Shown: one piece after another, positions 986 to 18,002 of the stretch
How positions within the stretch are numbered: the first letter of the stretch is position 1
Layout: every line of letters begins with the position of its first letter
NCBI GenBank assembly: GCA_040385525.1
Contig: JAZKHE010000004.1
Coordinates: 256,787 to 320,786, forward strand
Direction of reading: 5' to 3'
Source of the DNA: Bacteroidota bacterium
Lineage (GTDB): Bacteria; Bacteroidota; Bacteroidia; UBA4408
Length of the DNA: 64,000 bases
The notes under the pieces: model-generated
The model's input: the letters and a program-made list of their open reading frames with translations, nothing else
The model's database searches: none
Told to the model about the DNA's origin: nothing
Made by a program: the position numbers and the translations under genes

Positions 986-3346
986 CTATTTTTTTGATCT
1001 ATAGCCATAACCATAATTTTTTCCGTAGCCATAGCCGTAGCCATAAGCATATTTATTGTAATAATATTTTGAACTTTTTCTTTTTACTCCATTTAGTAAA
1101 AAGCCAAAATTTTCTATTTTATTATTTTCTATTACTTCCGTAACATCTTTAACAATTTCTTTAGTTGCTAATTTAGGATTTAAAACAAACATAACTATAT
1201 CAGCATGTTTCATTAAAATTAATGAGTCAGAAATTAATCCCAAAGGAGGCGTATCAATTATTACATAATCATAGTTAGAAACACCATATTCTATAATTTT
1301 TTGTAATTCAACAGACAAAATTAAATCGGATGGATTAGGCGGTATTGGACCAGATAATATTACATCTAAATTTTCAATATGTGTAGCTAAAATACAATCC
1401 GCTATATTTTCTTTTCCAGCTAACAACAAACTTAGTCCTTTATCGCTTTTCATATTTAATGCGATTTGAACTTTGGGTTTATGCAAATCAAACTCTAAAA
1501 CCAAAACTTTTTTATTTCCTTTTGCCAAAATAGCAGCTAAATTAACGGAACAAAAGGTTTTACCTTCACCTGGACTGTTAGATGTAACTAATACAACTTT
1601 TCCTTTACTTTCGTGATGAGATGCAACGTAATCCAAATTAGTTCGAACAGTTCTAAACGATTCAGTTAAAGGAGATTTTAAATCTTCTTCAATAACAATG
1701 TAATTTGATTTCCCAAAATCAGAGTACAAAATTTCACCCCAAATTGGGTATTCTGAAATTGCTTTTAACTCATTATACGACTCAATTCTAGAGAAAAACA
1801 AAGTACGTATTGCTATAATTACTGCTGAAAACAAAAAACCTACAATTAAATACATATTGTAAATTTTGCTCTTTTGGGGTTTTACAACACCAATAGATCT
1901 TGGTGATTCTATTACTTTTTTATCAGAAATTATGTTTGCTCTTGCAATAATTGCTGTCGCTCTTTTTTCTAACAAAAACATATACATTTTTTCGTTTACT
2001 TGCTGTTTACGAGTAATATTTAATAAAGCTCTTTGCTTTTTAGGCAGTGTTCTTAACGAATTATAATACTGACCATATTTATCTTTTAATCCGACAATTT
2101 TTTGCTTGATAGCAATTCTTAAATTACTTAAATAAACTAATAAATTCCCTTTTAATTTTTCAATTTGAGAGTCAATTCTATCAATAGCCAAATTCTCTTC
2201 TTTCGAATCATATAAAGCAGAATTTCTATTCATTTGTAAGTTATATAATTCAGAAACGGCGCTTCTTAAAAAAGCATCTGTTGAGTTTACATAAATTGAT
2301 GGAGGCAATAATTCGGGATCCTTTTTTTCAATAATATAATTTTCTAAATCATTTAAAGCTCCAATTTGTAAATCGTATAAATTAATTTCTGAATCATAAG
2401 AATCCAATTTCGAATAATAATTTCCCTCTTCTCTACCTAAGTTTAGAATAGCTTTATCGTCTTTAAAATTCTCTAAATAAGTTTCAATTGAATCTAAAAT
2501 GTAAATAATTTCATCAAGCTGTTTGTCAATATATTTAACCGTATTATCGTTAATTGCAATTTGACTTTGCAATGAATATTCTATGTAATCTTTACACAAA
2601 GTATCTAAAAAAGCTACTGCTCGTTCAGGAATTTCATCATCAATACGAAGGGCTAATATATTGGTATATTCTTCATTAGTTACTACTAAATCGCGAGAGT
2701 ATTTAGACACGAGTTTAGTAGGATTAATAATTTTGAAAAAATAATCCAATTCCTTGGTTTTATCAATTGTTAAATCATTTATTATTCCTGTCGATTGAAC
2801 ATTCAGTTTGAAATCATTTGTAATTAAATCTTTATCAAAAAAACCCTCAATTTCTTTTTGTTTACCATTTACATCATAACTTATTTTATATTTTTTTGTG
2901 CTTAATATTTTAAATTTTATTGGTAAACCATAGAGAGATGTAGATGAATTTAAAACTTTAATTCTAAACGGAACTCCTTTGTATACCTCAGTTGTTTTTA
3001 ATCGTCCTACTAAAAAATAGGAAACATCCATATCTAATTTACTAACTACGGTTTTAATTAAATTGGCCGATTTAATTACCTTCATTTGATTAGAAGTTTC
3101 CTGAAATTGACCATAATCAAACCCAATTACAGATTTAACCTGATAAGTTTCGTTGCTTTTTAATAAAATTTGAGCCGAAGCTCCATAAATATCAACGAGT
3201 TTGCTTACGTAAACATAAGCTACTCCAAACGATAATGTACAAAAAATGATAGGTAAATACCAATTTTTTGTAACAATTTTCCAAACCATTTGTATATCGT
3301 TTGGGTTTATTAAGGCTTTAGATTTTGATTTTAACTGTTTTTGCAT
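986..3346 (-). CDS. wzc: Polysaccharide biosynthesis tyrosine autokinase (PCP-2a / Wzc family; chain-length determinant + BY-kinase)
   Basis: 786 aa with an N-terminal TM, a long periplasmic Wzz-like region and a second TM. The cytoplasmic P-loop domain carries Walker A SNSPGEGKTFCSVNLAAILA. The C-terminal tyrosine cluster is YYYNKYAYGYGYGYGKNYGYGY. Confidence 0.85.
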   Translation of the reverse strand: MQKQLKSKSKALINPNDIQMVWKIVTKNWYLPIIFCTLSFGVAYVYVSKLVDIYGASAQILLKSNETYQVKSVIGFDYGQFQETSNQMKVIKSANLIKTVVSKLDMDVSYFLVGRLKTTEVYKGVPFRIKVLNSSTSLYGLPIKFKILSTKKYKISYDVNGKQKEIEGFFDKDLITNDFKLNVQSTGIINDLTIDKTKELDYFFKIINPTKLVSKYSRDLVVTNEEYTNILALRIDDEIPERAVAFLDTLCKDYIEYSLQSQIAINDNTVKYIDKQLDEIIYILDSIETYLENFKDDKAILNLGREEGNYYSKLDSYDSEINLYDLQIGALNDLENYIIEKKDPELLPPSIYVNSTDAFLRSAVSELYNLQMNRNSALYDSKEENLAIDRIDSQIEKLKGNLLVYLSNLRIAIKQKIVGLKDKYGQYYNSLRTLPKKQRALLNITRKQQVNEKMYMFLLEKRATAIIARANIISDKKVIESPRSIGVVKPQKSKIYNMYLIVGFLFSAVIIAIRTLFFSRIESYNELKAISEYPIWGEILYSDFGKSNYIVIEEDLKSPLTESFRTVRTNLDYVASHHESKGKVVLVTSNSPGEGKTFCSVNLAAILAKGNKKVLVLEFDLHKPKVQIALNMKSDKGLSLLLAGKENIADCILATHIENLDVILSGPIPPNPSDLILSVELQKIIEYGVSNYDYVIIDTPPLGLISDSLILMKHADIVMFVLNPKLATKEIVKDVTEVIENNKIENFGFLLNGVKRKSSKYYYNKYAYGYGYGYGKNYGYGYRSKK

Positions 3347-3476
3347 ACTTTTACTTTCACAAGCAAATTTAAGTTATTTATTGTTTATATCTTTAAAAAA
3401 ATAAATTTGATTTCTGTCAAACTTTAACTAAATTTGCTATTATACATATTTCTGCATGTTAACTAAATAATTTAAA

Positions 3477-6400
3477 ATGAGAAAAATTATATTCTTTTTT
3501 GTTTCAGTTTTGAAATTTAGTTGGCTAATGGCGCAAACAGGTCCTGGTGGAGTTGGTAATAATACCACCAACAGAATTTGGTTTGATGCACAACAACAAA
3601 ACCTAGTAAATAATGCATCAGTAGCTTCTATTGTAGATTTTTCAGGTAATAATAATAACGCTGGAGCACCAACTGCTGCTAAGAGACCTAAATTCATTAC
3701 AAACCAATCTAACGCTCAACCTACATTTCGTTTTGATGGCACTGATGATATTGTTAGAACTGGAGCTATTTCAAATTTAAACACTAGTACAATTAGTTGG
3801 TTTACTGTAATGAAATCTCCAACGGTAACTTATACAGGCACAGTAATGTCTAATGTTTATACAGGAGGTGCTGGTGTTGGAAGTGCTGCTTTATGGGGAA
3901 CTTACATTAATACTAGTAATAGTCAATACAATTCAAGTACACGCAGTGGTACTGGAACATCAATTAACAACTCGTTAGGTTATAATTCCAATTTTAATTT
4001 TTCAGAAAATATTTGGAATGGAGCTACAGATAATTTTACTAGTTTCTTAAATGGAAATTTTATCGCCTCAAAAGGAGGCGCTTCAGCACTCCCAAGTGGC
4101 CATACTGTAACTGCAATTGGAGGAAGAACTAATTCTACTCCAGCTTATAATTTTAATGGAGATATAGCTGAGATTATAGTATTTACTTCTGTAGTTAATA
4201 CTACTGAGCGAAGAATAATTGAAAATTATTTAGGCAATAAATACAACATTACTTTCTCAGGTGATTTATATGCTTATGAAGCTACTCATCAATATGGAAT
4301 TGCAGGAATTGGCCAAACAAGTGCGGCGGATAATCATTTAGATTCTAGAGGTACATCAACAGTTCGAATTTCTAACCCATCTTCAATTAACGATGGTGAA
4401 TTTATGTTTTGGGGACATAACAATGGCGCTGTTTCAATATCTAATTCAGAAGTTCCTCCTACTATCGTTACAAGATATCCTAGAGAATGGAGGGTTACTA
4501 AAACAGGTGATGCTGGAACAGTAACAATTGAATTTGATGTGACAACTTTTCCATTACCTGATGCAGGAAGATATCTTTTAATGGTAGACGCTGATGGAGA
4601 TTTTACAAACGCTACTTTAAGTTCTGAAGTTGCTGCAGTTGGAGGGATGGTTACTTTTACAAATGTAACTTTAAACGATGGTGATTTTTTTACTTTAGGT
4701 AATAAAGGTGATATTGAAAGTATAACAGATGGCTCATGGCAAACACCAGCTACGTGGAATTGTACTTGTATCCCTGCACTTACTTCAAACGTAACTATTA
4801 AAAATCCGCACACTGTTACAATTGATGGTATCTCTTTTTCGAGAAATTTAACCATTGAAAACGGAGCAACTTTAACATTTAATACCTCAGATATTTTATC
4901 AATTACAGGTAGTTTTGTTAACAGCGGAACATTTAATGCTGGTATTGGTATAACTGAATTTGCAGGCTCAAATAATCAAACAATTGGAGGAACAACAATA
5001 ACAACATTTTCAACAATACATATAAATAATGGAAATGCACTTCAATTATTAACGAATTCAGCAATAACAAACCAACTTTTATTTACTAGCGGTAATTTTG
5101 ATGCTGGAGTTGTTGATATGACTTTAATTTCTAACGCAAGTGGAACTGCACAAATAGGTATAGTACCTGGCGCTTCTACAATTAGTGGTAACTTTATTAT
5201 ACAACGATTTGTGCCAGGCGGAAATGCTTATTGGGATTATTTAGCAAGCCCAGTTCAATCTACAACACTTGTTGATTGGGATAACGAATTAATAATGAGT
5301 GTACCTAATGGTGCTGATGGAACAGCTTGGGGAACAAATACAACATTAAATAATTCGGTAAAAACATATAACGAAGCTACAAATACTAGCGTAGGAATTG
5401 CTTCTGTTAACTCAACATTACTTCCAACTCAAGGTTTCCAAGTTTTTTTAGGTGATAATCTTAACACCTTCGCATCAAGAACTTTTGATACTAGAGGAAT
5501 ACCTTCTCATGGAAACATCCCAAAAGCATTGAATTTTACCGATGCAGCACATGGTTATAATTTAATTGGTAATCCATATGCAAGTGATGTTAGCTGGGCA
5601 AGTCTTTTTGCTGCTTCAACTAATATTCAAAATCAGTATTTTATTTACGATAAAACTATTAAAAACTTTAAAACATTTGTTGGTGCTGGCACAATACCTT
5701 CATCTCAAGGTTTTATGATAAGAGCTACAGCACCCGGAGCACAAGTAAACTTTAGCGAATTAACTAAAGTTTCTGGGAGCGCAACTTGGACTCGCCCAAC
5801 AAATCCTAATTTTTCTTTAAATTTAAGAGTTACAGAAAAAGATAATGTTTATGGTGGTTTTGTCGCTGTTAAATCTGATATTAACTCTATTGATGAATTA
5901 GACGAATTAGATGGTGGATACATTGAAAATGATTTTGATGAAGACTCACCAAACATTTATACTCAAATTGAAAACGAAAAACTTCAAATCAATTCAATAC
6001 GTGAAGATGATTTTTCAAAACAAATAGGTGTTTTTGTTAAAGCTAACCGGAACGGAACTTTAATCATCACTTCAGATATAATTAACAATAGCACTGATTA
6101 TTCTAACATTTATTTAGAAGATGTTGAGAACAACAAAATTGTTGACTTAAAAAATAATAACGCTTACGAATTTGAGATTACCGATAAAGAAACAAGAAAA
6201 CAATTTGTTTTACATTTAAATAAAAATAATACTGTAAATCCTTTATCATCTAAAAATCAATCAATAGGAAACAATATAATTTTTATTAATAGTTCAGATA
6301 ATTGCGGTTTAATAGTAAGTAGCGAAAAACCTGCTTTAGCTACAATTGTTGTAACTAATATGTTAGGTCAGGAAGTTATTAAAACAGAAACAAGAGAAAT

Positions 6401-6503
6401 TTTAGAACCAACTAAAGTTTTATTAAATTTGCCAAACAATTCAATGTACTTAGTTAAAGTTACTATTGGTGATTCAGTTTACACAAATAAAGTGATTAGA
6501 TAA
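3477..6503 (+). CDS. Secreted T9SS cargo protein with LamG/ConA-like N-terminal region and Por-secretion-system C-terminal sorting domain
   Basis: Signal peptide MRKIIFFFVSVLKFSWLMAQ. The protein is 1008 aa and Asn/Thr/Gly-rich, typical of beta-rich surface proteins. The C-terminal ~80 aa ends ...SMYLVKVTIGDSVYTNKVIR, the usual T9SS type-A CTD pattern. Confidence 0.6.
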   Translation: MRKIIFFFVSVLKFSWLMAQTGPGGVGNNTTNRIWFDAQQQNLVNNASVASIVDFSGNNNNAGAPTAAKRPKFITNQSNAQPTFRFDGTDDIVRTGAISNLNTSTISWFTVMKSPTVTYTGTVMSNVYTGGAGVGSAALWGTYINTSNSQYNSSTRSGTGTSINNSLGYNSNFNFSENIWNGATDNFTSFLNGNFIASKGGASALPSGHTVTAIGGRTNSTPAYNFNGDIAEIIVFTSVVNTTERRIIENYLGNKYNITFSGDLYAYEATHQYGIAGIGQTSAADNHLDSRGTSTVRISNPSSINDGEFMFWGHNNGAVSISNSEVPPTIVTRYPREWRVTKTGDAGTVTIEFDVTTFPLPDAGRYLLMVDADGDFTNATLSSEVAAVGGMVTFTNVTLNDGDFFTLGNKGDIESITDGSWQTPATWNCTCIPALTSNVTIKNPHTVTIDGISFSRNLTIENGATLTFNTSDILSITGSFVNSGTFNAGIGITEFAGSNNQTIGGTTITTFSTIHINNGNALQLLTNSAITNQLLFTSGNFDAGVVDMTLISNASGTAQIGIVPGASTISGNFIIQRFVPGGNAYWDYLASPVQSTTLVDWDNELIMSVPNGADGTAWGTNTTLNNSVKTYNEATNTSVGIASVNSTLLPTQGFQVFLGDNLNTFASRTFDTRGIPSHGNIPKALNFTDAAHGYNLIGNPYASDVSWASLFAASTNIQNQYFIYDKTIKNFKTFVGAGTIPSSQGFMIRATAPGAQVNFSELTKVSGSATWTRPTNPNFSLNLRVTEKDNVYGGFVAVKSDINSIDELDELDGGYIENDFDEDSPNIYTQIENEKLQINSIREDDFSKQIGVFVKANRNGTLIITSDIINNSTDYSNIYLEDVENNKIVDLKNNNAYEFEITDKETRKQFVLHLNKNNTVNPLSSKNQSIGNNIIFINSSDNCGLIVSSEKPALATIVVTNMLGQEVIKTETREILEPTKVLLNLPNNSMYLVKVTIGDSVYTNKVIR

Positions 6504-6510
6504 TACAATT

Positions 6511-6726
6511 ATGTTTAAAAAAGTTTTTTATACTGCCGTTTTAATTTTAGGAGCAAAGTTAAGTTTCGCCCAACCCCCACTTCCAGATCCAATTTCTGGG
6601 TGTTGGCCTCCACCATGTGTCCCAATTGATGGTGGAATTTCGTTTTTACTTATTGCAGGTGCTGCATATGGCGGAAAAAAAATATACGAAAACAGAAAAA
6701 AAAATACCAGTATTAATAACGATTAA
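6511..6726 (+). CDS. Small PID-CTERM-type exosortase-F substrate (signal peptide + sorting tripartite tail only)
   Basis: 71 aa. A signal peptide (MFKKVFYTAVLILGAKLSFAQ) is followed by a Pro/Cys-rich spacer and the motif CVPIDGG. A hydrophobic helix ISFLLIAGAAYGG and a basic cluster KKIYENRKKN follow. This is the PEP-CTERM-like tripartite architecture (motif-TM-basic) and matches a PID-type signal. The XrtF gene starts 4 nt downstream. Confidence 0.5.
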   Translation: MFKKVFYTAVLILGAKLSFAQPPLPDPISGCWPPPCVPIDGGISFLLIAGAAYGGKKIYENRKKNTSINND

Positions 6727-6729
6727 ATA

Positions 6730-7257
6730 GTGTTTACTATTCATAAAAATCCAACGATTGCCTTTTTTATAAAGGCAATCGTTTTTTATATAAGTTGGTT
6801 TTTAGTATACGAACTTTGGCTACATCCAAAAGGTATTTTTGATGCAGCAGTTATTAATAACTTAGTAGATTCGAGTTCAACACTATTAAAATGGTTTGGA
6901 TTTAACCTTATGCCCGAACCCGATAGTGATAACATAAGAACAATTGGAATCGATGGCACACATGGGGTTTGGATAGGTGACCCTTGCAACGGTCTGACCT
7001 TATTTGCGCTTTTTGTTGGTTTTATAATTTCTTTTCCTGGCCCTATAAAACATAAGCTATGGTACATTCCTGCTGGAATTATTTTAATACATTTTTTAAA
7101 TATTTTAAGAATTGTTGCACTTTCTATAATATCGTTTAAAGCTCCTGAACTACTATCATTCAATCATACCTACACTTTTACAATTATTGTTTACGGAATT
7201 GTTTTTGTTCTTTGGATGGTGTGGGTAAATAAATTTTCGAAACTTGAAAAAAAATAA
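6730..7257 (+). CDS. xrtF: Exosortase family protein XrtF
   Basis: 175-aa polytopic membrane protein. It carries the exosortase catalytic-Cys motif (GDPCNGLTLF, compare ACSGLRS in EpsH/XrtA) and the conserved Asn-x-x-Arg motif (NILRIVALS). The size matches the short XrtF subfamily found in Flavobacteriia. Confidence 0.6.
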   Translation: MFTIHKNPTIAFFIKAIVFYISWFLVYELWLHPKGIFDAAVINNLVDSSSTLLKWFGFNLMPEPDSDNIRTIGIDGTHGVWIGDPCNGLTLFALFVGFIISFPGPIKHKLWYIPAGIILIHFLNILRIVALSIISFKAPELLSFNHTYTFTIIVYGIVFVLWMVWVNKFSKLEKK

Positions 7258-7723
7258 AATTCAACTACTTTTATTTTCCTTACTACTTATTTTCATTGGT
7301 TTTTTAAGAGAATACCTATTTGTAAGTATTAATTTAAGAATTCAGCAGATTTATTATAACAGTAATGAAAATGTAAATTTAATACCTGATTGGATTCAAT
7401 ACATTTCTCATTTAAACTATAGTGAATTACTCATTTTAAAATGGGTATTAACATTTATTTTCATCGTAGCCTTTTGGCTTGTTGCAATTTTGATTTTCAA
7501 AAAATTTTCTTTCGATAAAAAAGACATTAAACTCTTTTCAATAGTCTTAGTTACATTGCTAATAGCATCACTTTTATTCTATTGGATTGGAGATTCTTTA
7601 TTTAATAAAGAGTACTTTGGCTACAAAATTGCGAGATCAATTACTGGATTTCTTCAATCACCATTACCTATCTTAATTTATATTGCTTTTGTTTATTCAA
7701 TAAAAAAACAAAGCAAACACTAA
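7244..7723 (+). CDS. Exosortase F system-associated membrane protein
   Basis: 159-aa membrane protein with 4 TM helices. It overlaps the xrtF stop by 14 nt. The position and size match the conserved XrtF partner gene of Flavobacteriia. Confidence 0.45.
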   Translation: MKKNKIQLLLFSLLLIFIGFLREYLFVSINLRIQQIYYNSNENVNLIPDWIQYISHLNYSELLILKWVLTFIFIVAFWLVAILIFKKFSFDKKDIKLFSIVLVTLLIASLLFYWIGDSLFNKEYFGYKIARSITGFLQSPLPILIYIAFVYSIKKQSKH

Positions 7724-7806: not shown

Positions 7807-9081
7807 ATGATAAAAGACACTACTATTTTTAATTTAATTAACGAAGAAAAACATCGTCAAGTAAATGGTTTAGAGTTAATCGCTTCCGAAAATTTTGTAA
7901 GCGATCAAGTTATGCAAGCAATGGGTTCTGTTTTAACAAACAAATATGCTGAGGGTTTACCAAACAAAAGATATTACGGTGGTTGCGAAGTTGTTGATAA
8001 AGTAGAACAATTAGCAATAGATAGAGTTAAACAATTATTTGGTGCAGCGTGGGCAAATGTTCAACCTCACTCGGGTGCGCAAGCAAATGCAGCTGTAATG
8101 CTTGCCGTTTTAAAACCAGGCGATACAATTTTAGGATTTGATTTATCACATGGTGGTCACTTAACACATGGATCTCCTGTTAATTTTTCAGGTAAATTAT
8201 ACAGAGCTACTTTTTATGGTGTAGAAAAAGAAACGGGTAGAATTGATTACAATAAAGTAGAAGAAACTGCACAAAAAGAAAAGCCAAAATTATTAATTTG
8301 CGGCGCATCATCTTATTCTAGAGATTGGGATTACGAACGTTTAAGAAAAATTGCAGATAGTGTTGGTGCTTTATTAATGGCAGATGTATCACATCCAGCA
8401 GGCTTAATAGCAAAAGGTTTATTAAACAATCCAATGCCACATTGCCACATTGTTACAACAACAACGCACAAAACATTACGCGGACCAAGAGGTGGTTTAA
8501 TTATGATGGGAAAAGATTTTCCAAATCCATTTGGAATAACAACTCCTAAAGGAGAAGTTAGAATGATGTCTTCTTTATTAGATTCAGGCGTGTTTCCTGG
8601 TACACAAGGCGGACCATTAGAACATGTAATTGCAGCAAAAGCTGTTGCATTTGGCGAAGCATTAGAAGATTCTTTTAAAGATTACGGCGTTCAGGTAATG
8701 AAAAATGCAAAAGTAATGGCACAAGCATTTGTTGATAAAGGGTACGGAGTAATTTCAGGAGGAACAGAAAACCACTGTATGCTTATTGATTTGCGTTCTA
8801 AAAATATTTCGGGTAAAGAAGCTGAGAATTTATTAGTAAAAGCAGATATAACAGTAAACAAAAATATGGTTCCTTTTGATGATAAATCTCCAATGGTTAC
8901 ATCAGGTATTAGATTAGGAACAGCTGCTATTACAACAAGAGGTATTAAAGAAGATAAAATTAATTACATAGTTGAATTAATTGACGAAGTAATTATGAAT
9001 AGAGAAAATGCAACTATAGTAGAGTCTGTTAAAAACAAAGTAAATGCATTAATGAAAGATTTGCCTTTATTTGGTTGGTAG
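7807..9081 (+). CDS. glyA: Serine hydroxymethyltransferase
   Basis: 424 aa. Canonical SHMT sequence throughout, for example [10 protein letters not shown] and the PLP-lysine region [14 protein letters not shown]. Confidence 0.95.
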
Positions 9082-9092
9082 AAGTTAATGGT

Positions 9093-10964
9093 ATGCTAAA
9101 CAGGCTTCTTCAAAATAAAGTATCTTCAAAAATATTAGGCTTCTTCAGAATTTTATTCTTCTTAAACTTCTTTTTTGAGGTATTAAGTTTATTCAATTTT
9201 AGACATCTTATATTTGATAAGGTATCCTATTTTGAGCCCTCTGAGATATCATTTACATATGTTTTTTTTGTTTGGTTTTTTGTTATTGGTTTTATTATCA
9301 TTGGACTAAAACCAAGAATTGCTTTTTTACTAAATTTTTTAATCAGTCTATTTGTTATTGGATCGATAAAAAGCTATGAATATCATATGTTTTACGCATA
9401 TATGAGCGTAAATTTTTTATCCCTATTTATTCCACTTACAAAATCTTATTCTATTGATAACTTATTTAAAAAATTAAACTACTCAACAATTGAAAAAGAA
9501 TATAGTAATGATGAATTAGTGCCCGAATTCTATTATTTTATTTATGTTTTTGCAGGTATAGGTCTATTTTATTTAGATTCTACTTTTTACAAGTTATCTT
9601 CTGAAATGTGGCTTAACGGACTTGGCATGTGGCTGCCATCTTCAATACCTTTAGCAGTTAAAACCTATAGTTTATTTATATTGAATAACGAATATCTATC
9701 AAAATTTTTGGGGTATTTTACTATGTTATTTGAATTAGTTTTTATTTTCTTGTTTTGGAAAAAAAGATTTAAAATCCCTTTCTTTTTAATTGGAGTTATT
9801 TTTCATATTGGAATTTTTATACTTTGGCCAATTCCCTATTTTGCAATAGGTGTTATTATTATTTACACTTTATTATTGCAAGCTGACCTATTTGAAAAAA
9901 TATCATTAAAAAGTAAAACTCAAAAGCTCACAATTATTTATAATAATAAACATCCATTAAGTGTACGAAAAAAAATAATAATTCAGCATTTTGATTTATT
10001 TAATAAAATAAAATTCACTACAATCGAAGATGCAGATAAATCATTAAACAAAATTGACATTAGTAAAATTAATGAACACGATTTAACATTTGGTTATTAC
10101 TCAATAAAAAATGGAATTATTATAAAAGGAATTGATACAATTATTGCTTTGTTATTTTCGTTAGTATTTTTTAGTCCAATTGCTTTAGTTTTACAAATCC
10201 CAGGCATATACCACCTTACAAAATATTTATTTAATAAATATTTAAAAGATTATTCAGATAATACTAATGATATTACTAGTTATTCAATTGGTTTCTCTCC
10301 GAAAGAAAATCGTATTGATAACAACAAAATAAAAATATTCAAAAACCTAAGTTCTATTCAAATTGAAAAATATGGTTTTAAACTATTATTCTACTTGTTA
10401 ATTATTCTTCAGTTTAACGCTAGTTTAAAATCTCCATTGTTTAGGAATAAGCTAAGATACTATAGTTTTTACGATAAATATAATGAAGCAACTAAGTCAA
10501 TAACTAGTTTTTCCAAAGAATTTTTAGGAGTAACTAATCATTCTGTATTTATAGATTCTCATTTTAAGGGATACAATCACATTATTAAAGTAGAATACCT
10601 ATTACCAAATGGAAAAAAAACAATTTTACCAATTATTGATGAACTTGGAATGCCAGGAAAATATTTAATAGGCGGAACATGGGCAAAGTGGACATTTAGA
10701 GTTTCAATGCCTAAAATAAACCAAGACAAATTAAGCAAAGGCATTAGAGATTTTACTGCTTATTGGCTACATAATTCTTCAATTATAAACGATCCTTACG
10801 CAAATTACAAATTTATTATATCTGTAAAAAAAATTGATTCTACAAAAAAATGGGAAAAGAATTTTTTAATTAAACAATATCAAAAACCATGGATTGAAGC
10901 TGGTTTTGTTACTTGGGAAAATGGAACTTTTGTTTCTAAAATAAAAAGAATAGAATCTATTTAG
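9093..10964 (+). CDS. HTTM (vitamin-K-dependent gamma-carboxylase-like) polytopic membrane domain fused to a DCC/DUF393-like domain (CxxC degenerate) and a ~230-aa conserved C-terminal domain of unknown function
   Basis: N-terminal LGFFRILFFLNFFFEV... is the hallmark start of HTTM domains and is followed by ~8 TM helices. The middle region aligns with the DCC thiol-disulfide oxidoreductase of paralog 10985-12856. Here the CPLC motif is replaced by HPLS (IIYNNKHPLSVRKK). The C-terminal domain (FTAYWLHN...KPWIEAG) is conserved between the two paralogs. The start was chosen at the second Met by alignment with the paralog; an alternative ATG at 9075 overlaps glyA. Confidence 0.6.
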   Translation: MLNRLLQNKVSSKILGFFRILFFLNFFFEVLSLFNFRHLIFDKVSYFEPSEISFTYVFFVWFFVIGFIIIGLKPRIAFLLNFLISLFVIGSIKSYEYHMFYAYMSVNFLSLFIPLTKSYSIDNLFKKLNYSTIEKEYSNDELVPEFYYFIYVFAGIGLFYLDSTFYKLSSEMWLNGLGMWLPSSIPLAVKTYSLFILNNEYLSKFLGYFTMLFELVFIFLFWKKRFKIPFFLIGVIFHIGIFILWPIPYFAIGVIIIYTLLLQADLFEKISLKSKTQKLTIIYNNKHPLSVRKKIIIQHFDLFNKIKFTTIEDADKSLNKIDISKINEHDLTFGYYSIKNGIIIKGIDTIIALLFSLVFFSPIALVLQIPGIYHLTKYLFNKYLKDYSDNTNDITSYSIGFSPKENRIDNNKIKIFKNLSSIQIEKYGFKLLFYLLIILQFNASLKSPLFRNKLRYYSFYDKYNEATKSITSFSKEFLGVTNHSVFIDSHFKGYNHIIKVEYLLPNGKKTILPIIDELGMPGKYLIGGTWAKWTFRVSMPKINQDKLSKGIRDFTAYWLHNSSIINDPYANYKFIISVKKIDSTKKWEKNFLIKQYQKPWIEAGFVTWENGTFVSKIKRIESI

Positions 10965-10984: not shown

Positions 10985-12856
10985 ATGATATTGAACAAAA
11001 AACTAAATACACTTTTTTTAACCAAAATTTCTTCAAAAACACTTGCTGTATTTAGAATTGCTTTTTTTTCAGTATTACTTTTCGAAGTAATTAGAATTTA
11101 TAGATTTAGAAATTTAATTTATGACAAAATCCCTTATTTTGAACCAGCAGAGATTACTTACGATTCAATTCTAATTATTTGGGGAATAGTAGTTACTTTT
11201 TTAATAATAGGTTTTAAAAATAAAACATTTAGTATAATAAATTTTGTAATTAGTCTGTTTTTAATTGGTACTTTAAGATCCTATGAGTATCATATGTTCT
11301 ACGCATACATGGGAGTAAATTTTATGTCTATTTTTATTCCAATATCTAAATCATACTCTATAGACAATTTAATTGAAAAATTAAATCATTCAACATTAAA
11401 AAAAGAACATAAACCTAACGAGCTTGTACCCGAATTTTATTATTACATAATAATTTTCATGGGAATTGGTGTTGTCTATTTTGACTCCATATTTTTTAAG
11501 TTGATTTCTCCGTTATGGCTAGCTGGTTTAGGAACATGGTATCCTGCTTCGATGCCGTTTGCAGTAAATATAGATAGTAGCATAATATTGAATAATGAAT
11601 TTTTGATAAAATACTTTGGTTATCTAACAATTGTGTTTGAAATAGTTTTCATTTTTTTATTTTGGAACAAAAAATTTAAACTACCTTTTTTTATAATAGG
11701 TTTAGGTCTACATATTGGTATATATATTTTGTTCCCTATTCCTTTATTTGCACTTGGGGTTATCGCAATATATTTGCTTTTACTCCCACCAAATTTTATT
11801 GAAAAAATAAAATTTCATTTTATAAAAAAGCAATTAATATTCTTTTATGACAACGAATGTCCGTTATGTTTGCGTACAAAAATTGTTATAGAACATTTTG
11901 ACTTATTTAAAGCCGTTAAGTTTGTCTCAATTCAAGAAAATTACAATCAATATCCTGAGTTAGAAAAAATAGGCTATGCAAATGCGTTAGACAATATTTA
12001 TTCAATTTCTAATAAAAAAGTATATGAAGGAGTTGACACTTATATAGCTGTTTTGTTTAAAATGATTTACACAGCTCCTTTTGCATTATTATTAAAAATA
12101 CCAGGCATTTATCACATAGCAAAAAAAGTTTATTCAATTGTTGCGAAAAATAGAAATACTGAACGTTGTACTGAAGATTCTTGTGAAATAGGATTTAATC
12201 CCACTCCTAATTTTTCGAACGAAAAAAATGTTAAAGTGTTTATAAATTTGACAATAGAAGATTTAAAAAAATTAGGCTTCAAAGCATTGTTCTTCACTTT
12301 AATTAGCTTTCAAATTTTAGTGAGTTTGAAATCTCCATTGATTAGTCGTTTTTTAAATAACGAAGAAGCATCAAATAGTGGACTTCAAACCTTACGTGAT
12401 TTTTCAAAATCTGCATTTGGAATCACAAATCATGAAGTTTTTATGGACTATCATTTTAATTACTACAATCATATTATCAAAATAGAATATGTAACATCAA
12501 AAAACACTAAAATTCTTTTACCTATAATTGATAATAATGGTATGCCTGCAGAATATTTAAAAGGATTTAATTGGGTTAAATGGACTTTTAGAGTTATGGG
12601 TTCTAAAGTTTATGGACATAGATTAAATGAAGGTATCAGAGACTTTACAGCATACTGGCTTCATAACAATCTTATTTCTGGCGATCCAACTAAAAATCAT
12701 ACATTCATAATATCAGTTAAAAAAATTGATAGCCCAAAGGGCTGGCAAAAAGATTTTTTAAAGCATCAACTAAACAAGCCGTGGATTGAAGCAGGAACAG
12801 CTACATGGGATAAGAAAAAATTCACATTAAATTTATTGAATATTGAATCCATCTAA
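10985..12856 (+). CDS. HTTM domain - DCC (DUF393) thiol-disulfide oxidoreductase fusion protein with conserved C-terminal domain
   Basis: 623 aa, a paralog of 9093-10964 with roughly 45-50% identity by eye. It has an HTTM N-terminus (LAVFRIAFFSVLLFEV) and an intact DCC-type redox motif FFYDNECPLCLRTKIVIEHFD. The C-terminal module is shared with the upstream paralog. Confidence 0.65.
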   Translation: MILNKKLNTLFLTKISSKTLAVFRIAFFSVLLFEVIRIYRFRNLIYDKIPYFEPAEITYDSILIIWGIVVTFLIIGFKNKTFSIINFVISLFLIGTLRSYEYHMFYAYMGVNFMSIFIPISKSYSIDNLIEKLNHSTLKKEHKPNELVPEFYYYIIIFMGIGVVYFDSIFFKLISPLWLAGLGTWYPASMPFAVNIDSSIILNNEFLIKYFGYLTIVFEIVFIFLFWNKKFKLPFFIIGLGLHIGIYILFPIPLFALGVIAIYLLLLPPNFIEKIKFHFIKKQLIFFYDNECPLCLRTKIVIEHFDLFKAVKFVSIQENYNQYPELEKIGYANALDNIYSISNKKVYEGVDTYIAVLFKMIYTAPFALLLKIPGIYHIAKKVYSIVAKNRNTERCTEDSCEIGFNPTPNFSNEKNVKVFINLTIEDLKKLGFKALFFTLISFQILVSLKSPLISRFLNNEEASNSGLQTLRDFSKSAFGITNHEVFMDYHFNYYNHIIKIEYVTSKNTKILLPIIDNNGMPAEYLKGFNWVKWTFRVMGSKVYGHRLNEGIRDFTAYWLHNNLISGDPTKNHTFIISVKKIDSPKGWQKDFLKHQLNKPWIEAGTATWDKKKFTLNLLNIESI

Positions 12857-13952
12857 TTCTACTAAAATTTCATTTAGTGGTTTAAATGAAATAAGAGCAA
12901 TTGCAGCATTCTTAGTTGTTTTTCATCATTTAGAATCATTAAAAAAAAGCGAATGGCTTACATCTATATACGATATTAAATTTCTTTTTGATTTTGTGAA
13001 AAATATTGGTCATAATGGTGTAATACTTTTTTTCACACTATCTGGCTTTCTAATAACATATCTCTTACTTTTTGAAAAGAAAAAATTTGGATTTATCGAT
13101 ATAAAATCATTTTATGTTAGGCGAATACTTAGAATTTGGCCCTTATATTTTCTTATTATTATTATAGGCTTCTTTATTTTACCACTGATTAATGAATTTA
13201 GTCTTTTTGATAATCAAAAATATTATACAAGTTTAATACGGAAAATTGATTACACTACTTTACCACTATATATTTTATTCTTATCAAACTTTGCTTTAGG
13301 CTTCTATAAACCAATTGTTGGAGCTTCACAATCTTGGTCAGTATCTGTTGAAGAACAATTTTACCTTCTTTGGCCGTGGCTAGTAAATAAAATAACTAAT
13401 ACTAAATTATTATTTTTCTTAATTCTTTCAATAGCTGTTTTAAAGCCCATAATTGAAATACTAATTACTAACAACAATCTTAAAATGATTATCCATGTTG
13501 TACAAATAGAATATATGTGCACAGGATCTCTTTTTGCAATATTACTTTATACTGATAAAATTCCAATTGTATTCACAAAACATCGCATTCTGATTTTATC
13601 AATAACAATTGTTGCAATATTATTTCAGTTTGTATTTCACATAAATAATATGCTAATATCACTTTTTTTTGGCGTTTTTATTTTAATTATTTCTCAATCT
13701 AAATTTAAAAATAAACCATTATTTTATTTTGGAAAAATATCATACGGAATTTACATGTATCATCCGTTTATTATGTTTATTTGTTTTTCATTAGCTAAAC
13801 ATCTAGCAAAAAACGAACTGCTTTTTAATGCAATATACTATAGTAGTACCCTACTATTTACAATATTAATAAGCCATTTATCGTATTATTATTTTGAGAG
13901 TAAATTCTTAAATTTCAAACACAAATTCACTAAAATAGAATCAGGTGCATAA
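12843..13952 (+). CDS. Acyltransferase family 3 (OafA/YrhL-like O-acyltransferase), integral membrane
   Basis: 369 aa with about 10 TM helices. The N-terminus LNEIRAIAAFLVVFHHLE is the acyltransferase_3 signature. Confidence 0.75.
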   Translation: MNPSNSTKISFSGLNEIRAIAAFLVVFHHLESLKKSEWLTSIYDIKFLFDFVKNIGHNGVILFFTLSGFLITYLLLFEKKKFGFIDIKSFYVRRILRIWPLYFLIIIIGFFILPLINEFSLFDNQKYYTSLIRKIDYTTLPLYILFLSNFALGFYKPIVGASQSWSVSVEEQFYLLWPWLVNKITNTKLLFFLILSIAVLKPIIEILITNNNLKMIIHVVQIEYMCTGSLFAILLYTDKIPIVFTKHRILILSITIVAILFQFVFHINNMLISLFFGVFILIISQSKFKNKPLFYFGKISYGIYMYHPFIMFICFSLAKHLAKNELLFNAIYYSSTLLFTILISHLSYYYFESKFLNFKHKFTKIESGA

Positions 13953-14802
13953 ACAAATTCTTATAGTTGGTTCAAACAGTATTTTATCTAAACAACTTGT
14001 TAGCGATTTAGAAAGTGAATACCTTATTGATATTGCTTATTCTGGAAATAATCCAGGAATAGAAAGTGATGCTAACTCAATCAATTTAATTAAATTAGAT
14101 TCAGTATTTTCGAGCAATAAAAAATACGATTTTGTTATTATAATTAGTGCTTTTATTCCAGCAAATAATGAGGGAAATAACAAAAAATTATATGAAGTTA
14201 ATGTTGAATTGGTTGAGCGATTAATTAGTAAAAACAAAGATTCAAAAATTATTTTTTGTTCAACAGTTTCTGTATTTACACCGAATAATAATGAAATTAT
14301 TTCTAAAAAAAGTACCGTAAATCCTATAAATGAATATGGAATATCTAAGCTTTGGGCAGAGAAAATAATCCAAAAAAATGCCAAATCTTATGCGATTTTG
14401 AGAATTTCATCTCTTATGGGTGTTGGAATGAAATCAAATACATTTTTACCTCTAATTATTGAAAATGCTATAAAAAACAAAAAAATCACACTATTTGGCG
14501 AAGGCAAAAGGCTTCAGAATTATATAGATGTGTCAATTTTGAGTAAAATGGTAAAAAAATGCTTGAAATATGAAAAAAACGAAGTATTTTTAGCTGTTGG
14601 CGAAAAGTCTTTTACAAATAAAGAAATTGCCGAAATGGTAAAAAGTAAAACTAATTGTGAAATCGTTTTTGAAGGTATTGACAATTCTATATCAATTGAA
14701 TACGATAACTCGTTTACAAAAAAAGAATTGAATATTATATATGAAAAAAGTATTGAGCAAAGTATTGATGAATTAATTGAATGGAAAAGAAAACAGTTTT
14801 AG
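13945..14802 (+). CDS. NAD-dependent epimerase/dehydratase (extended SDR) family protein
   Basis: 285 aa with an N-terminal Rossmann-like start ILIVGSNSILSKQL. The catalytic YxxxK is present (NEYGISKLWAEK). The gene sits inside the sugar-biosynthesis cluster. Confidence 0.55.
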   Translation: MHKQILIVGSNSILSKQLVSDLESEYLIDIAYSGNNPGIESDANSINLIKLDSVFSSNKKYDFVIIISAFIPANNEGNNKKLYEVNVELVERLISKNKDSKIIFCSTVSVFTPNNNEIISKKSTVNPINEYGISKLWAEKIIQKNAKSYAILRISSLMGVGMKSNTFLPLIIENAIKNKKITLFGEGKRLQNYIDVSILSKMVKKCLKYEKNEVFLAVGEKSFTNKEIAEMVKSKTNCEIVFEGIDNSISIEYDNSFTKKELNIIYEKSIEQSIDELIEWKRKQF

Positions 14803-15764
14803 TTACCGGTATTGGTGGTAATGTTGGACAAGGTATTATAAGAAACATTTTAGAAACAAAATTTCCAATTACAATTGTTGGATGTAATATAGCTAGTTTT
14901 AGTGCAGGAAATTATTTATGTGATGCTTTTGAATTAGTTCCATACGCTTATGACACAAATTATATTCCTAAAATAAATGAAATTGTAAAAAAATACAATG
15001 TTGATTTAATAATTCCGAGTACTGATTACGAAATTTATTATTTAGCAAAAAACAAACATTTGTTAAGTTGTGAAGTGGCTTGTTCATCTGAATCGGCAGC
15101 AAACACCTACTTAGATAAATGGTTAACTTGGCTACACCACCAACAAAATAATATTCCTTTTGCGGCTTCATGTTTGCCAAGCAATTTTACAAATCAATTT
15201 AAAGAACATATTACCAAGCCTAAAAAAGGTCGCGGTTCTAGAGGCCTTCACTTTAACCATACCGATCCAAAATCATTTACAGATGATGAGTATATGTTGC
15301 AAGAACTGGCTGTTGGAAACGAAATTACTACAGCGTTTTATGTTACTAAAAAAGGAACATTACACGGACTAATTACTATGGAACGTACATTAGAAAATGG
15401 CGCGACAAATTTTTCTAAAGTAATTACTCAATATGACGAAGAAATAACTAAAAGTATTTTGGAACCAATGATTGCTAATACAGAAATTAGAGGTTCAATT
15501 AATGTGCAGTCTATTGTAACAGAAGACAATAAAATTATTCCGTTTGAAGTAAATTGCAGAATATCGGGTACAAATTCAATCCGTACCAATTTTGGTTTTA
15601 AAGATGTAAAATATACATTACAAGAATATTTATATCATCAAGAACCCGAAAAACCAGCAGTTATAAATGGAATTGCCGTTAGAGTTTTATTAGATGTTAT
15701 TTACCCAAATGCAACATCAGTAGAATCAATTTTAACAAACAAATCCGAAAATTATATTTTTTAA
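14781..15764 (+). CDS. ATP-grasp domain protein (carboxylate-amine ligase-like)
   Basis: 327 aa. The N-terminus VLVTGIGGNVGQGIIRNI resembles the pre-ATP-grasp/CPSase-like domain. The central and C-terminal regions have the alternating beta pattern of ATP-grasp enzymes. The call rests on these motifs and on synteny only. Confidence 0.45.
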   Translation: MEKKTVLVTGIGGNVGQGIIRNILETKFPITIVGCNIASFSAGNYLCDAFELVPYAYDTNYIPKINEIVKKYNVDLIIPSTDYEIYYLAKNKHLLSCEVACSSESAANTYLDKWLTWLHHQQNNIPFAASCLPSNFTNQFKEHITKPKKGRGSRGLHFNHTDPKSFTDDEYMLQELAVGNEITTAFYVTKKGTLHGLITMERTLENGATNFSKVITQYDEEITKSILEPMIANTEIRGSINVQSIVTEDNKIIPFEVNCRISGTNSIRTNFGFKDVKYTLQEYLYHQEPEKPAVINGIAVRVLLDVIYPNATSVESILTNKSENYIF

Positions 15765-15765
15765 A

Positions 15766-16413
15766 ATGGCGGCAAAAATTAAACATTTATTATTTGACGC
15801 TGCGAATACCTTAATTCACAAGCCACAGCTATGGATTAAGATTCAAGAAGTTTTAAAAGAATCTGGTTATAATATTACTGATGAAAAATTAATGTATAAC
15901 CATAAATTAATCAGTGAATTAATTAATTTTCCAGACAGAACTAATAAAGACTTTTATCACCATTTTAATTCAGAGTTGCTATTATCATTAGGAATTAATC
16001 CCAACGATAAAATGCTTAATTTACTTTTTGAAAAATGTTCTTATTTACCGTGGGAATCATTTGCAGATTGTGGTGAGCTAAAATCAATTGATTTACCAAA
16101 ATCAATTCTATCTAATTTTAATTCAACTTTATCAAACACAATTAGCGAAAAAGTAAACTTACAATTCAATACAATTATTAATTCAGAAATAGAAGGTGTT
16201 AGAAAACCTAATATAGAATTTTATAATCTAGCAGTAAGCAAATTAAATTGTGCTGCCAACGAAATTTTATATATCGGAGATTCTTTAAATCTAGATTATT
16301 GTCCAGCCAAAGAAGTTGGAATGAATAGTTTAGTAATTGATAGAATTAATTTTTTTCCAAAACACGATTTCATCATAAATAGTTTCTCAGAAATAAAAAC
16401 TCATTTAGCTTAA
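15766..16413 (+). CDS. HAD-superfamily hydrolase (haloacid-dehalogenase-like phosphatase)
   Basis: 215 aa. Motif I-like LLFDAANTLI lies near the N-terminus and the motif IV-like IGDSLNLD near the C-terminus. Confidence 0.55.
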   Translation: MAAKIKHLLFDAANTLIHKPQLWIKIQEVLKESGYNITDEKLMYNHKLISELINFPDRTNKDFYHHFNSELLLSLGINPNDKMLNLLFEKCSYLPWESFADCGELKSIDLPKSILSNFNSTLSNTISEKVNLQFNTIINSEIEGVRKPNIEFYNLAVSKLNCAANEILYIGDSLNLDYCPAKEVGMNSLVIDRINFFPKHDFIINSFSEIKTHLA

Positions 16414-16416
16414 GCA

Positions 16417-17355
16417 ATGAACGAAACTAGAAAAAAACTCTCACTAATTGTTCCTGTTTATTTTGAAGAGGAATGTATTACTCAGTTTATTAAAGAAACC
16501 ACAGAAGTTTTAGAAACACTACCAATTGATTACGAGATTGTTTTTACAGATGATGGCAGTACCGACAATACAACATCAATAATTAAAGAACACGCCGAAA
16601 AAAACAACAGATTGAAACTAATTGAGCTATCGTATAATCACGGTAAACAAGCCGCTGTAACAGCAGGAATAACCTACTCTACTGGCGATTATTGCTTATA
16701 CATGGATCCAGATTTGCAAGATCCGCCAAAAGAAATACCTCGCTTTTTAGAAGAAATAAGTAAAGGTTACAATTTAGTTTTTGGCGTTAGAAAAGAAAAA
16801 ATTGATGGTGCTCTAAACAAGTTATTCTCTCGTTTATTTTGGTATACTCTTGAAAGATTTACAGGATTAAAACTTCCAAAAGGATTAGCTGTGATGCGAA
16901 TTTTTGATAGAAAATTTGCAAATAAATTTTTAGAATATGGCGAACAAAATAGATTTATAGAAGGTATATTTATGCACATTGGCATGAAGAAAACAACTAT
17001 AGAAATTGAACAAAGAGAGCGCTTTGCGGGTGTAAGCAAATTTAATTTTAAAAGAAAAATGAAATTGGCTTTTGATGCCATATTCGATTTTTCCGAAATA
17101 CCATTAAAACTAGCGGTTAAATTGGGTATTTATTTATTAGTAATTGGCTTTATATTTTTGTTTACTATTATTGTTTTAAAATTTACGGTAGTTGATTTTC
17201 AAGCGGGTTGGGCATCGTTAATTTGTGCCATTGTATTAGGTTTTGGTTTACAACTTTTTTTTATTGGAATAGCCGCAATTTATATTGGTCGTTCTTATAA
17301 AGAAGTTAAAAAAAGACCTTTGTTTTCTGTTAAAGAACTTACAAATTTAAATTAA
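16417..17355 (+). CDS. GT2 polyprenyl-phosphate glycosyltransferase (ArnC/GtrB/DPM1-like)
   Basis: 312 aa. The GT-A catalytic domain carries LSLIVPVYFEE, DDGSTDNT and the DxD motif MDPDLQD. Two C-terminal TM helices follow. This is the architecture of Und-P sugar transferases. Confidence 0.85.
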   Translation: MNETRKKLSLIVPVYFEEECITQFIKETTEVLETLPIDYEIVFTDDGSTDNTTSIIKEHAEKNNRLKLIELSYNHGKQAAVTAGITYSTGDYCLYMDPDLQDPPKEIPRFLEEISKGYNLVFGVRKEKIDGALNKLFSRLFWYTLERFTGLKLPKGLAVMRIFDRKFANKFLEYGEQNRFIEGIFMHIGMKKTTIEIEQRERFAGVSKFNFKRKMKLAFDAIFDFSEIPLKLAVKLGIYLLVIGFIFLFTIIVLKFTVVDFQAGWASLICAIVLGFGLQLFFIGIAAIYIGRSYKEVKKRPLFSVKELTNLN

Positions 17356-18002
17356 TGAAAACGATAGCTATTATTGGAGCAAAGGATTTAGGACAGCTTA
17401 TTGCGTATCATGCAATAACCGATAATCATTTTGATTCAGTAGTGTTTTTTGATGACTTTCTAGAAAAAGATTCACTTGTAGATGGACATAAAATAATTGG
17501 TAAAATTTCTGAGATTGAAGATTGTTTTAAACAAAAAAAATTCGACTCCATAATTATTGCAATTGGTTACAATCATTTAAATTTCAAGAAAAAACTATTT
17601 GCAGAATTAGATTCAAAAAATATTCCATTTGCAACAATAATTCATTCATCAAGCTATGTTGATAAAAGTTGCAAAATAGGCAAGGGAGTGTTTATTTTAC
17701 CTGGTTGCACATTAGATAGAAATGTAATTATAGGTAACAATACCGTGCTTAATACAGCTTGTGCTATAGCCCACGATACTGAAATTGAGAGTACTTGTTT
17801 TTTGTCTCCAAGAGTTGCTATTGCTGGTTTTACAAAAATAAATGAACTTTGTGTAATTGGTATAAATGCCACAATTATTGACAATATAACTATCTGTGCT
17901 AAAAGCCAAGTTGGTGGCGGAGCAGTTGTAACAAAATCTATAGATGAAGCTGGATTATATGTTGGTATACCAGCTAAAAAAATTAAAAAATTAGACTTAT
18001 GA
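17355..18002 (+). CDS. Sugar N-acetyltransferase, NeuD/PglD/PglB family (left-handed beta-helix hexapeptide)
   Basis: 215 aa. The N-terminus MKTIAIIGAKDLGQLIAYHA is the NeuD/PglD Rossmann-like start. The C-terminal half contains hexapeptide repeats. Confidence 0.8.
   Translation: MKTIAIIGAKDLGQLIAYHAITDNHFDSVVFFDDFLEKDSLVDGHKIIGKISEIEDCFKQKKFDSIIIAIGYNHLNFKKKLFAELDSKNIPFATIIHSSSYVDKSCKIGKGVFILPGCTLDRNVIIGNNTVLNTACAIAHDTEIESTCFLSPRVAIAGFTKINELCVIGINATIIDNITICAKSQVGGGAVVTKSIDEAGLYVGIPAKKIKKLDL

Follow-up and report, generated by a model that had tools for sequence, protein, structure and literature searches.

Within a 64-kb stretch of an uncultured Bacteroidota genome (~30% GC; hereafter the window) lies a compact cassette in which the gene for a 71-aa mini-protein with a PID-CTERM sorting signal immediately precedes the gene for a 175-aa exosortase, assigned here to exosortase X (XrtX), followed by that for a small membrane partner. 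Comparison of this cassette with 80 XrtX-homologue loci from species-representative genomes, in which ~12 kb was scanned per genome, indicates that XrtX and PID-CTERM probably form a dedicated one-enzyme, one-substrate sorting system. In this system the mini-protein would be the only substrate, with cleavage proposed at the PID motif and transfer of the exported portion to an acceptor. The genes concerned, together with the type IX secretion system (T9SS) cargo gene that precedes them, are the following.

3477-6503, + strand: T9SS cargo gene, 1008 aa
6511-6726, + strand: mini-substrate gene (PID-CTERM), 71 aa
6730-7257, + strand: xrtX (exosortase X), 175 aa, GTG start
7244-7723, + strand: XrtX-associated membrane protein gene, 159 aa, TTG start, four hydrophobic segments

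An earlier note on this DNA had placed the same four open reading frames (ORFs) at these coordinates and had described them as tightly joined, and both points stand. The spacings of 8 and 4 nt that it gave are revised: the T9SS cargo gene is separated from the mini-gene by 7 nt, and the GTG of xrtX comes 3 nt after the mini-gene stop. The last 14 nt of xrtX (7244-7257) are shared with the partner gene and fall within an A-rich run, TTGAAAAAAAATAAAA, that spans the xrtX stop and the partner TTG. In other loci the partner ORF, read from its first upstream start codon, begins at points between 72 nt ahead of the xrtX stop and 7 nt past it.

The evidence for a single dedicated substrate comes from the neighbourhoods of XrtX and from searches with the sorting tail alone. 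The 80 loci all derive from uncultured Flavobacteriales, Salibacteraceae, Crocinitomicaceae, Cryomorphaceae and similar groups. A hidden Markov model (HMM) of the tail, run over 936 kb in total, found exactly one PID-tail ORF, always adjoining XrtX, in 75 of these loci and in the 64-kb window; one of the exceptions is cut by a contig end, so that 75 of 79 informative loci carry the gene. The 71-aa ORF, for which lack of conservation in relatives would have been troubling, thus has a homologue beside XrtX in nearly every locus. A regex scan of the window likewise detected no PID tail besides that of the 71-aa ORF. The earlier note had regarded an absence of other PID-tail proteins as grounds for rejecting the proposal; because one enzyme here appears to serve one substrate, a single PID protein is instead the expected state. 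The arrangement also agrees with the view of Haft that consecutive enzyme and target genes are a signature of one-to-one systems.

Substrate size is equally consistent across the family. Mini-genes beside XrtX encode 67-86 aa (median 72) when sensible start codons are chosen. A tail-only profile compared with 5.8 billion proteins returned 1,600 matches, of which the best 120 are all 66-72 aa in length. When the 41-aa tail from the window was searched exhaustively against 1.84 billion cluster representatives, 266 matches were obtained; in 137 of the best 150 the motif falls within the last 45 residues, and these proteins have a median length of 76 aa and do not exceed 180 aa. No PID tail on a protein longer than 180 aa occurs among the matches listed (best 120 of 1,600; best 150 of 266). 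Since these tail searches gave no large carriers, near-absence of cargo is the rule for the whole PID-CTERM class and not a quirk of the window locus, and the earlier remark that the substrate has virtually no cargo can be extended to the class. Several long matches (P0241, P0279, P0311 and P0325) were rejected as members, the matching segments being internal DxDGDGDxDL-type sequences (FG-GAP/VCBS-like repeats) or unrelated segments, not C-terminal tails.

The assignment of the enzyme follows from profile scores. The 175-aa ORF matches NF046081 (XrtX) at 213.7 bits (cutoff 170, E = 1.5e-63) over 167 of 168 model positions, and the exosortase superfamily signature TIGR04178 at 55.2 bits (cutoff 23). 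The next-best subfamily models are XrtF (TIGR04128), at 107 bits with a cutoff of 90, and XrtY, at 67 bits. Pfam PF09721 EpsH scores 17.3 bits, under its threshold of 25.7, and the ArtA model scores 26 bits versus a cutoff of 75. No CAAX/CPBP-type match was obtained in NCBIfam or Pfam at E <= 1, and no CAAX or other family in these collections scores higher. The exosortase identity proposed earlier is therefore upheld, whereas the subfamily label is not: by these scores the enzyme is exosortase X, not XrtF. The system to which it belongs is already defined by NCBIfam (NF046080, NF046081 and NF046082) and Pfam (PF28310), so the locus cannot be presented, as it had been, as an undescribed parallel to XrtA. 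No annotated XrtX or XrtF locus was found on plasmids.

Three residues of the enzyme, Cys86, Arg127 and His146, are invariant in 20 XrtX homologues of 52-62% identity. Cys, Arg and His make up the proposed catalytic triad of the exosortase/archaeosortase superfamily (bioRxiv 10.1101/2023.06.07.544157), and Cys-173 of ArtA has experimental support as an active-site residue (PMC7157517). The putative catalytic residues of XrtX are encoded as follows.

6985-6987, + strand: Cys86
7108-7110, + strand: Arg127
7165-7167, + strand: His146

The motifs D84-P-C86-N-G-L and N124-I-L-R127 in the enzyme, and CVPIDGG, a hydrophobic stretch and KK..RKK in the mini-protein, are present as they had previously been read. 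An AlphaFold model of XrtX (predicted local distance difference test score 89.2, predicted template modelling score 0.82) contains five helices and a beta-hairpin loop ahead of Cys86. Comparison with solved structures gave no relative in the PDB by fold (best Foldseek E = 2.2) or by sequence, a result that rules out a better-scoring known fold and says nothing on function.

The 71-aa ORF matches NF046080 PID_CTERM at 48.5 bits (cutoff 26, E = 5e-13) across residues 37-61 of 71 and carries a precomputed match to PF28310, in agreement with its initial description as a PID-CTERM-like substrate. By inspection it begins with a putative signal peptide composed of a KK-containing n-region, a hydrophobic core and SFA/Q, and a crude rule detects a like layout in 181 homologues. 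Its parts are as follows.

aa 1-20, 6511-6570, + strand: predicted signal peptide, cleavage SFA/Q
aa 21-40, 6571-6630, + strand: exported stub QPPLPDPISGCWPPPCVPID, 20 residues, ending in CWPPPC-VPID
6601-6618, + strand: Cys box C31-x4-C36
6622-6630, + strand: P38-I-D40 motif
aa 41-55, 6631-6675, + strand: transmembrane (TM) helix
6676-6702, + strand: basic cluster KKIYENRKK

In homologues a predicted signal peptide is followed by a spacer of 3-24 residues (43% Pro, 22% Gly) and a Cys box, after which come GG, a TM helix and a Lys/Arg cluster; CWPPPC(I/V)PID is present in 161 of 181. The part that would be exported runs from the predicted signal-peptidase site through the Asp of PID and measures 13-34 residues in these proteins, with a median of 23. 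The tail, including its TM helix, and the juxtamembrane GGKKxYD are strongly conserved, and the spacer is of low complexity. Mean column identity is 57% for the tail versus 59% for the enzyme, indicative of a similar evolutionary rate. The 25-position NCBIfam model begins at Val37 and so does not cover the Cys box. Of 137 PID-tail representatives, 86 have this box and 47 lack it, and because of the latter it is a mark of a subclass and not a requirement for sorting. A lipoprotein reading of ISG/C, which in the window looks like a lipobox, was considered and set aside: homologues have GPP/C or GPG/C at this position, and the Cys lies well beyond the hydrophobic core. The longest genuine member among those listed is a 180-aa PID-CTERM protein without a Cys box, encoded at 2495-3037 of locus L083 (also in L084 and L085). 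Its gene directly follows two T9SS cargo genes and represents a second, independent adjacency of T9SS cargo and PID-CTERM.

The third gene of the cassette is best understood through its counterparts elsewhere. The 159-aa partner aligns with NF046082 over 143 of 147 model positions at 38.6 bits (E = 8e-10), under the cutoff of 75, and its sole other NCBIfam match at E <= 1 is a weak one to EcfS. In 72 of the 80 loci, XrtX is immediately followed by a gene for a protein of 115-184 aa; products of 69 of these genes match the window partner (phmmer, best E = 4e-21), and a profile constructed from the downstream genes scores it at 110.7 bits. Because the genes downstream of XrtX elsewhere are homologous to it, the partner is classed, by sequence, as a divergent XrtX-associated membrane protein. 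Its former designation as XrtF-associated is withdrawn, since at E <= 1 its match is to the XrtX-associated model, with none to a model for XrtF-associated proteins; the four hydrophobic segments ascribed to it are evident by eye.

The junction between mini-gene and xrtX contains a terminator-like hairpin (6753-6783, + strand) with a perfect 13-bp stem and a 5-nt loop, followed by the T-run TTTTATATAA extending to 6793. The element starts 27 nt past the mini-gene stop and is embedded in xrtX codons 8-18. The predicted RNA fold of 6720-6800 has a free energy of -21.1 kcal/mol (z = -5.18), and none of 200 shuffled sequences was as stable. The rule applied across loci called for no fewer than 6 stem pairs, of which 3 or more are G-C, with 3-8 nt in the loop and 5 or more T within 8 nt; sites that satisfy it are concentrated at the junction.

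Junction, -15 to +110 of mini-gene stop: 31/76 loci, 40.8%
Random windows, same loci: 176/7,381, 2.4%
TM-coding tiles of xrtX and partner: 17/529, 3.2%
Junction, opposite strand: 11/76, 14.5%

Fisher's test of the junction versus the TM-coding tiles gives p = 2e-19, a value that is overstated by the relatedness of the loci. At least 8 unrelated stem sequences are represented among the junction sites. Some are canonical terminators that end just before the xrtX ATG (L048, L071, L009, L006 and L067), and others lie inside N-terminal xrtX codons. In pilin and lantibiotic operons, a leaky terminator between the precursor gene and the processing genes yields an excess of precursor. By this analogy, the enrichment suggests that the XrtX substrate would be made in excess over its enzyme.

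Across a divergent intergenic region, the cassette faces genes for extracellular polysaccharide (EPS) export.

3347-3476: divergent intergenic region between wzc and the + strand operon, 130 nt
986-3346, - strand: wzc-type polysaccharide co-polymerase / tyrosine autokinase, 786 aa, divergent from the XrtX operon
107-958, - strand: wzm-type ABC-2 polysaccharide exporter permease, 283 aa
1-104, - strand: wzt-type ABC ATPase, first ~34 codons, remainder beyond the left window edge

Wzc matches TIGR01007 at 158.3 bits (cutoff 108) along with Pfam AAA_31, GNVR and Wzz. A wzc homologue is found upstream of and divergent from the cassette in 55 of the 80 loci, and in many of these the mini-gene is its immediate neighbour. 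Wzm matches PF01061 ABC2_membrane at 72.8 bits, with weak matches to Wzm/KpsM equivalog models, and has homologues in 24 of 80 loci. The wzt gene is whole in the source contig (L001, 3-617, minus strand), where its product matches PF00005 ABC_tran at 80.5 bits. The link to a wzc-wzm-wzt operon drawn in the earlier note is thus substantiated and, in the case of wzc, retained among relatives; wzt is real but falls almost wholly off the window. A divergent cassette in another locus (L082, 4001-5310) encodes a PID-CTERM protein of 117 aa that lacks Cys, an XrtX-like exosortase of 205 aa that scores 115 bits on the XrtX model, below cutoff, and a 134-aa protein without a family. It is transcribed divergently from wzc, wza and a Bac_transf (priming transferase) gene, and its placement beside wzc/wza provides independent support for the EPS link. 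This cassette may represent an undescribed sister subfamily.

A plausible course of events can be outlined from these features. The 71-aa precursor would be exported by Sec and its signal peptide cut after SFA20, the predicted site, exposing Gln21 for cyclisation to pyroglutamate. Such a modification would conform to the Bacteroidetes Q-rule, in which Gln follows most signal peptidase I cleavage sites and is converted to pyroglutamate (PMC5837995, PMC10653852). The C-terminal helix and basic cluster would hold the precursor in the inner membrane, with the 20-residue Pro-rich stub in the periplasm. Cys86 of XrtX, aided by Arg127 and His146, would then attack at PID, the helix being discarded and a thioacyl intermediate formed, which an acceptor amine would resolve. 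The anticipated product is a short two-Cys peptide blocked at both ends, pGlu-PPLPDPISGCWPPPCVP(ID) with a C-terminal adduct, joined to a membrane lipid or to the Wzc/Wzm/Wzt polysaccharide. A leaky terminator after the mini-gene would keep precursor mRNA far above enzyme mRNA, as befits a bulk product. By analogy with studied relatives, cleavage by XrtX at PID and transfer of the ~20-residue peptide to a lipid or glycan is the most likely function of the system. Precedents for the acceptor include archaetidylethanolamine, proposed for ArtA (PMC7157517), and a glycerophosphoethanolamine-containing moiety for rhombosortase.

A bolder and rather doubtful extension of this scheme is that the XrtX product constitutes a new envelope molecule. 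It would comprise a hinge-like Pro/Gly peptide of ~20 residues that starts with pyroglutamate, ends in an amide made by the exosortase and is covalently joined to the Wzc/Wzm/Wzt polysaccharide or a lipid. In the Cys-box subclass, interchain disulfides formed by CWPPPC might staple glycans or surface proteins into a matrix. The CWPPPC pair recalls the CPPC motif of the antibody hinge.

Several observations weigh against a dedicated cleavage-and-transfer system of this kind. The claim of one substrate per genome is founded on segments of ~12 kb from each genome. Four of the 79 informative loci have a different upstream gene in place of the adjacent mini-gene, and the 180-aa PID protein of L083 has no adjoining exosortase. 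The partner in the window scores well under its model cutoff, and the Cys box is missing from many representatives. The p-values for synteny as well as for the terminator are overstated because the loci are phylogenetically related, and the window hairpin sits inside a coding region, its role in termination being inferred. No papers on PID-CTERM or XrtX were found in the literature searched, and transpeptidation is still a proposal even for ArtA. Finally, the helix that is to be discarded is strongly conserved, which suits a stable subunit equally well.

This last point leads to the alternative that the mini-protein is a stable subunit, pseudo-substrate or regulator of XrtX, occupying or gating the active site or bridging XrtX to the partner or to Wzc, with the true substrate encoded elsewhere and possibly devoid of a recognisable tail. 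Such a role would account for the concentration of conservation in the tail, TM helix and GGKKxYD relative to a low-complexity exported spacer of 3-24 aa, for a tail as conserved as the enzyme itself, and for the lack of large cargo among the tail-search matches listed. Slow evolution of the tail is, however, also expected if a single substrate co-evolves with its enzyme, and the succession of motif, helix and basic cluster is the layout of known cleaved sorting signals. The terminator-like element, moreover, predicts an excess of mini-protein that is unfit for a 1:1 subunit; a leaky terminator favours a bulk substrate instead. A subunit or regulatory role is consequently judged unlikely.

Release of the peptide, as a signal or an antimicrobial of the ribosomally synthesised and post-translationally modified type, with XrtX serving purely as a maturation protease and nothing anchored, is less probable again. 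The succession of a small precursor gene, a leaky terminator, a processing enzyme and a membrane partner resembles that of bacteriocin and lantibiotic operons, and the product would be a protease-resistant, Pro-rich, two-Cys peptide. The cassette nevertheless includes no conserved exporter, immunity gene or modification enzyme, and its conserved neighbour is wzc, not a peptide transporter. The exported sequence is of low complexity and variable length, unlike a bioactive core peptide, one third of the family contains no Cys residues, and the studied relatives anchor their substrates and do not release them.

That the locus houses an XrtF system with an XrtF-associated protein, as first labelled, is scarcely credible: TIGR04128 does exceed its own cutoff and many public records still give XrtX proteins the XrtF name (among them that of the identical protein P0001), a persistent annotation problem, but the XrtX score is double that of XrtF, the partner matches the XrtX-associated model and none for XrtF, newer NCBI records (P0102) use "exosortase X", and XrtF has no known substrate (PMC10936215, PMC12188702) whereas the enzyme here adjoins a PID-CTERM gene.

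The T9SS cargo gene that opens the operon stands apart from the one-enzyme, one-substrate pair. Its 1008-aa product matches TIGR04183 (T9SS type A C-terminal domain) at 29.6 bits (cutoff 23) over residues 942-1007 and has a precomputed match to PF26628 DUF8202. No sequence relative of this protein was found in the PDB, and no paper on DUF8202 was found in the literature searched. The gene is probably co-transcribed with the mini-gene. A homologue lies between wzc and the mini-gene in 30 of the 80 loci. Further T9SS type A cargo genes are distributed through the window.

29163-30977: 604 aa
30982-33348: 788 aa
46169-50800: 1543 aa
52686-60386: 2566 aa

The 788-aa protein belongs to the choice-of-anchor B family. 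With five such genes within 64 kb, T9SS cargo is common in this genome; given this frequency and the restriction of the homologue to 30 of 80 loci, the 1008-aa T9SS gene is regarded as a clade-specific accessory and not as a core part of the cassette. The T9SS domain and the adjacency noted earlier are therefore sound, while the tight linkage built upon them is confined to one clade and does not hold in general.

The 130-nt divergent region contains three matches to TAnnTTTG, the Bacteroidetes -7 motif, at 3364-3371 (-), 3402-3409 (+) and 3429-3436 (+). The motif is not enriched across the window (109 seen versus 133 expected), so these matches are only suggestive, and a sigma-70 promoter scan, with 19 sites versus 23.6 expected, was uninformative. 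The 3' end of the T9SS gene contains a further match to the -7 motif (TAAATTTG, 6424-6431), 80 nt ahead of the mini-gene ATG. An internal promoter retained from an ancestral adjacency of wzc and the mini-gene is a possible explanation.

Other neighbours of the cassette include a series of glycan genes at 12843-19129 (~12.8-19 kb), which add to the evidence for the EPS link and encode Acyl_transf_3, RmlD/epimerase-like, PylC-like ATP-grasp, HAD hydrolase, GT2, PglD-like hexapeptide acetyltransferase and DegT aminotransferase proteins. An amino-sugar pathway encoded here could be the source of an amine acceptor. Directly after these genes, the products of 19138-20823 (561 aa) and 20972-22531 (519 aa) gave no Pfam match at E <= 1e-4. 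Synteny extends to glyA, located after the cassette in 43 of 80 loci; this is taken to reflect inherited gene order and not function. Tandem genes at 9075-10964 and 10985-12856 encode paralogous membrane proteins of ~625 aa. In the middle of each is a DCC1-like thiol-disulfide oxidoreductase domain, which scores 64.8 bits in the second protein and only weakly in the first. The two proteins were considered as dedicated disulfide partners of the Cys pair and rejected: homologues occur in 8 of 80 loci only and match another region of the protein. Two more distant genes are unrelated to the XrtX cassette. The product of 36052-37356 is a CcrM-like adenine DNA methyltransferase, whose 225 bits fall short of the equivalog cutoff, and that of 40900-42309 carries ankyrin repeats and weakly matches Legionella Ank effector models.

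Exosortases are widespread and have been tied to biofilm and floc formation. Exosortase acceptors are not known, nor are the substrates of XrtF (PMC10936215, PMC12188702), and XrtX represents the simplest test case. Its ~20 exported residues make for the smallest imaginable exosortase substrate and a tractable route to acceptor chemistry, because in so small a molecule the C-terminal adduct should be directly identifiable by mass spectrometry. If the product does prove to be a new envelope molecule, this would be the first exosortase system with an acceptor readable by mass spectrometry, and the "missing" substrates of XrtF may likewise be tiny, unannotated ORFs. Because uncultured Flavobacteriales of water and soil commonly carry the XrtX system, its product is likely to be an ecologically relevant surface component.

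The window cassette represents the same system, in the same gene order, as the XrtX/PID-CTERM/XrtX-associated entries of NCBIfam and Pfam. Enzyme and substrate pass the respective cutoffs, and the partner is divergent from the database entry, at 38.6 bits versus a cutoff of 75. The consistently tiny substrate, the Cys box outside the model, the wzc linkage and the terminator were not found documented in the sources searched. Among characterised relatives, XrtF of Flavobacterium johnsoniae (Fjoh_1448/Fjoh_1449) is likewise a short Bacteroidota exosortase followed by a small membrane partner, and both proteins are needed for biofilm formation and surface colonisation (PMC10936215). It differs in belonging to another subfamily by score, with another partner family, and its substrates are unknown, whereas XrtX has an adjacent one. 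XrtA (EpsH) and PEP-CTERM share with XrtX a superfamily, a tripartite C-terminal signal and frequent placement in EPS loci with a tyrosine kinase, and XrtA is tied to floc and biofilm formation. XrtA is, however, a much larger enzyme that serves dozens of sizeable, often glycosylated substrates bearing a PEP motif, in contrast to the single PID substrate in the window.

Archaeal ArtA, which acts on PGF-CTERM proteins in Haloferax volcanii, is homologous to XrtX, uses an active-site Cys and removes a C-terminal helix from substrates that become lipid-anchored (PMC7157517). Its proposed thioacyl intermediate, resolved by a lipid ethanolamine (PMC7157517), is the template for the mechanism suggested for XrtX, although ArtA handles large substrates such as the S-layer glycoprotein. 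Within the same organism, the T9SS sortase PorU constitutes the other C-terminal sorting system, with an unrelated enzyme and signal and a site of action at the outer membrane. PorU cuts off the C-terminal signal of its cargo proteins and attaches them to a surface glycan. The signals recognised by myxosortases, MYXO-CTERM and other Cys-containing types, are also tripartite and contain one or two conserved Cys residues just before the helix. Myxosortases are glutamic-type CPBP/Rce1-like proteases, however, and the Cys in their substrates lies within the signal, whereas the Cys pair of XrtX substrates is located upstream of PID and is missing in a third of them.

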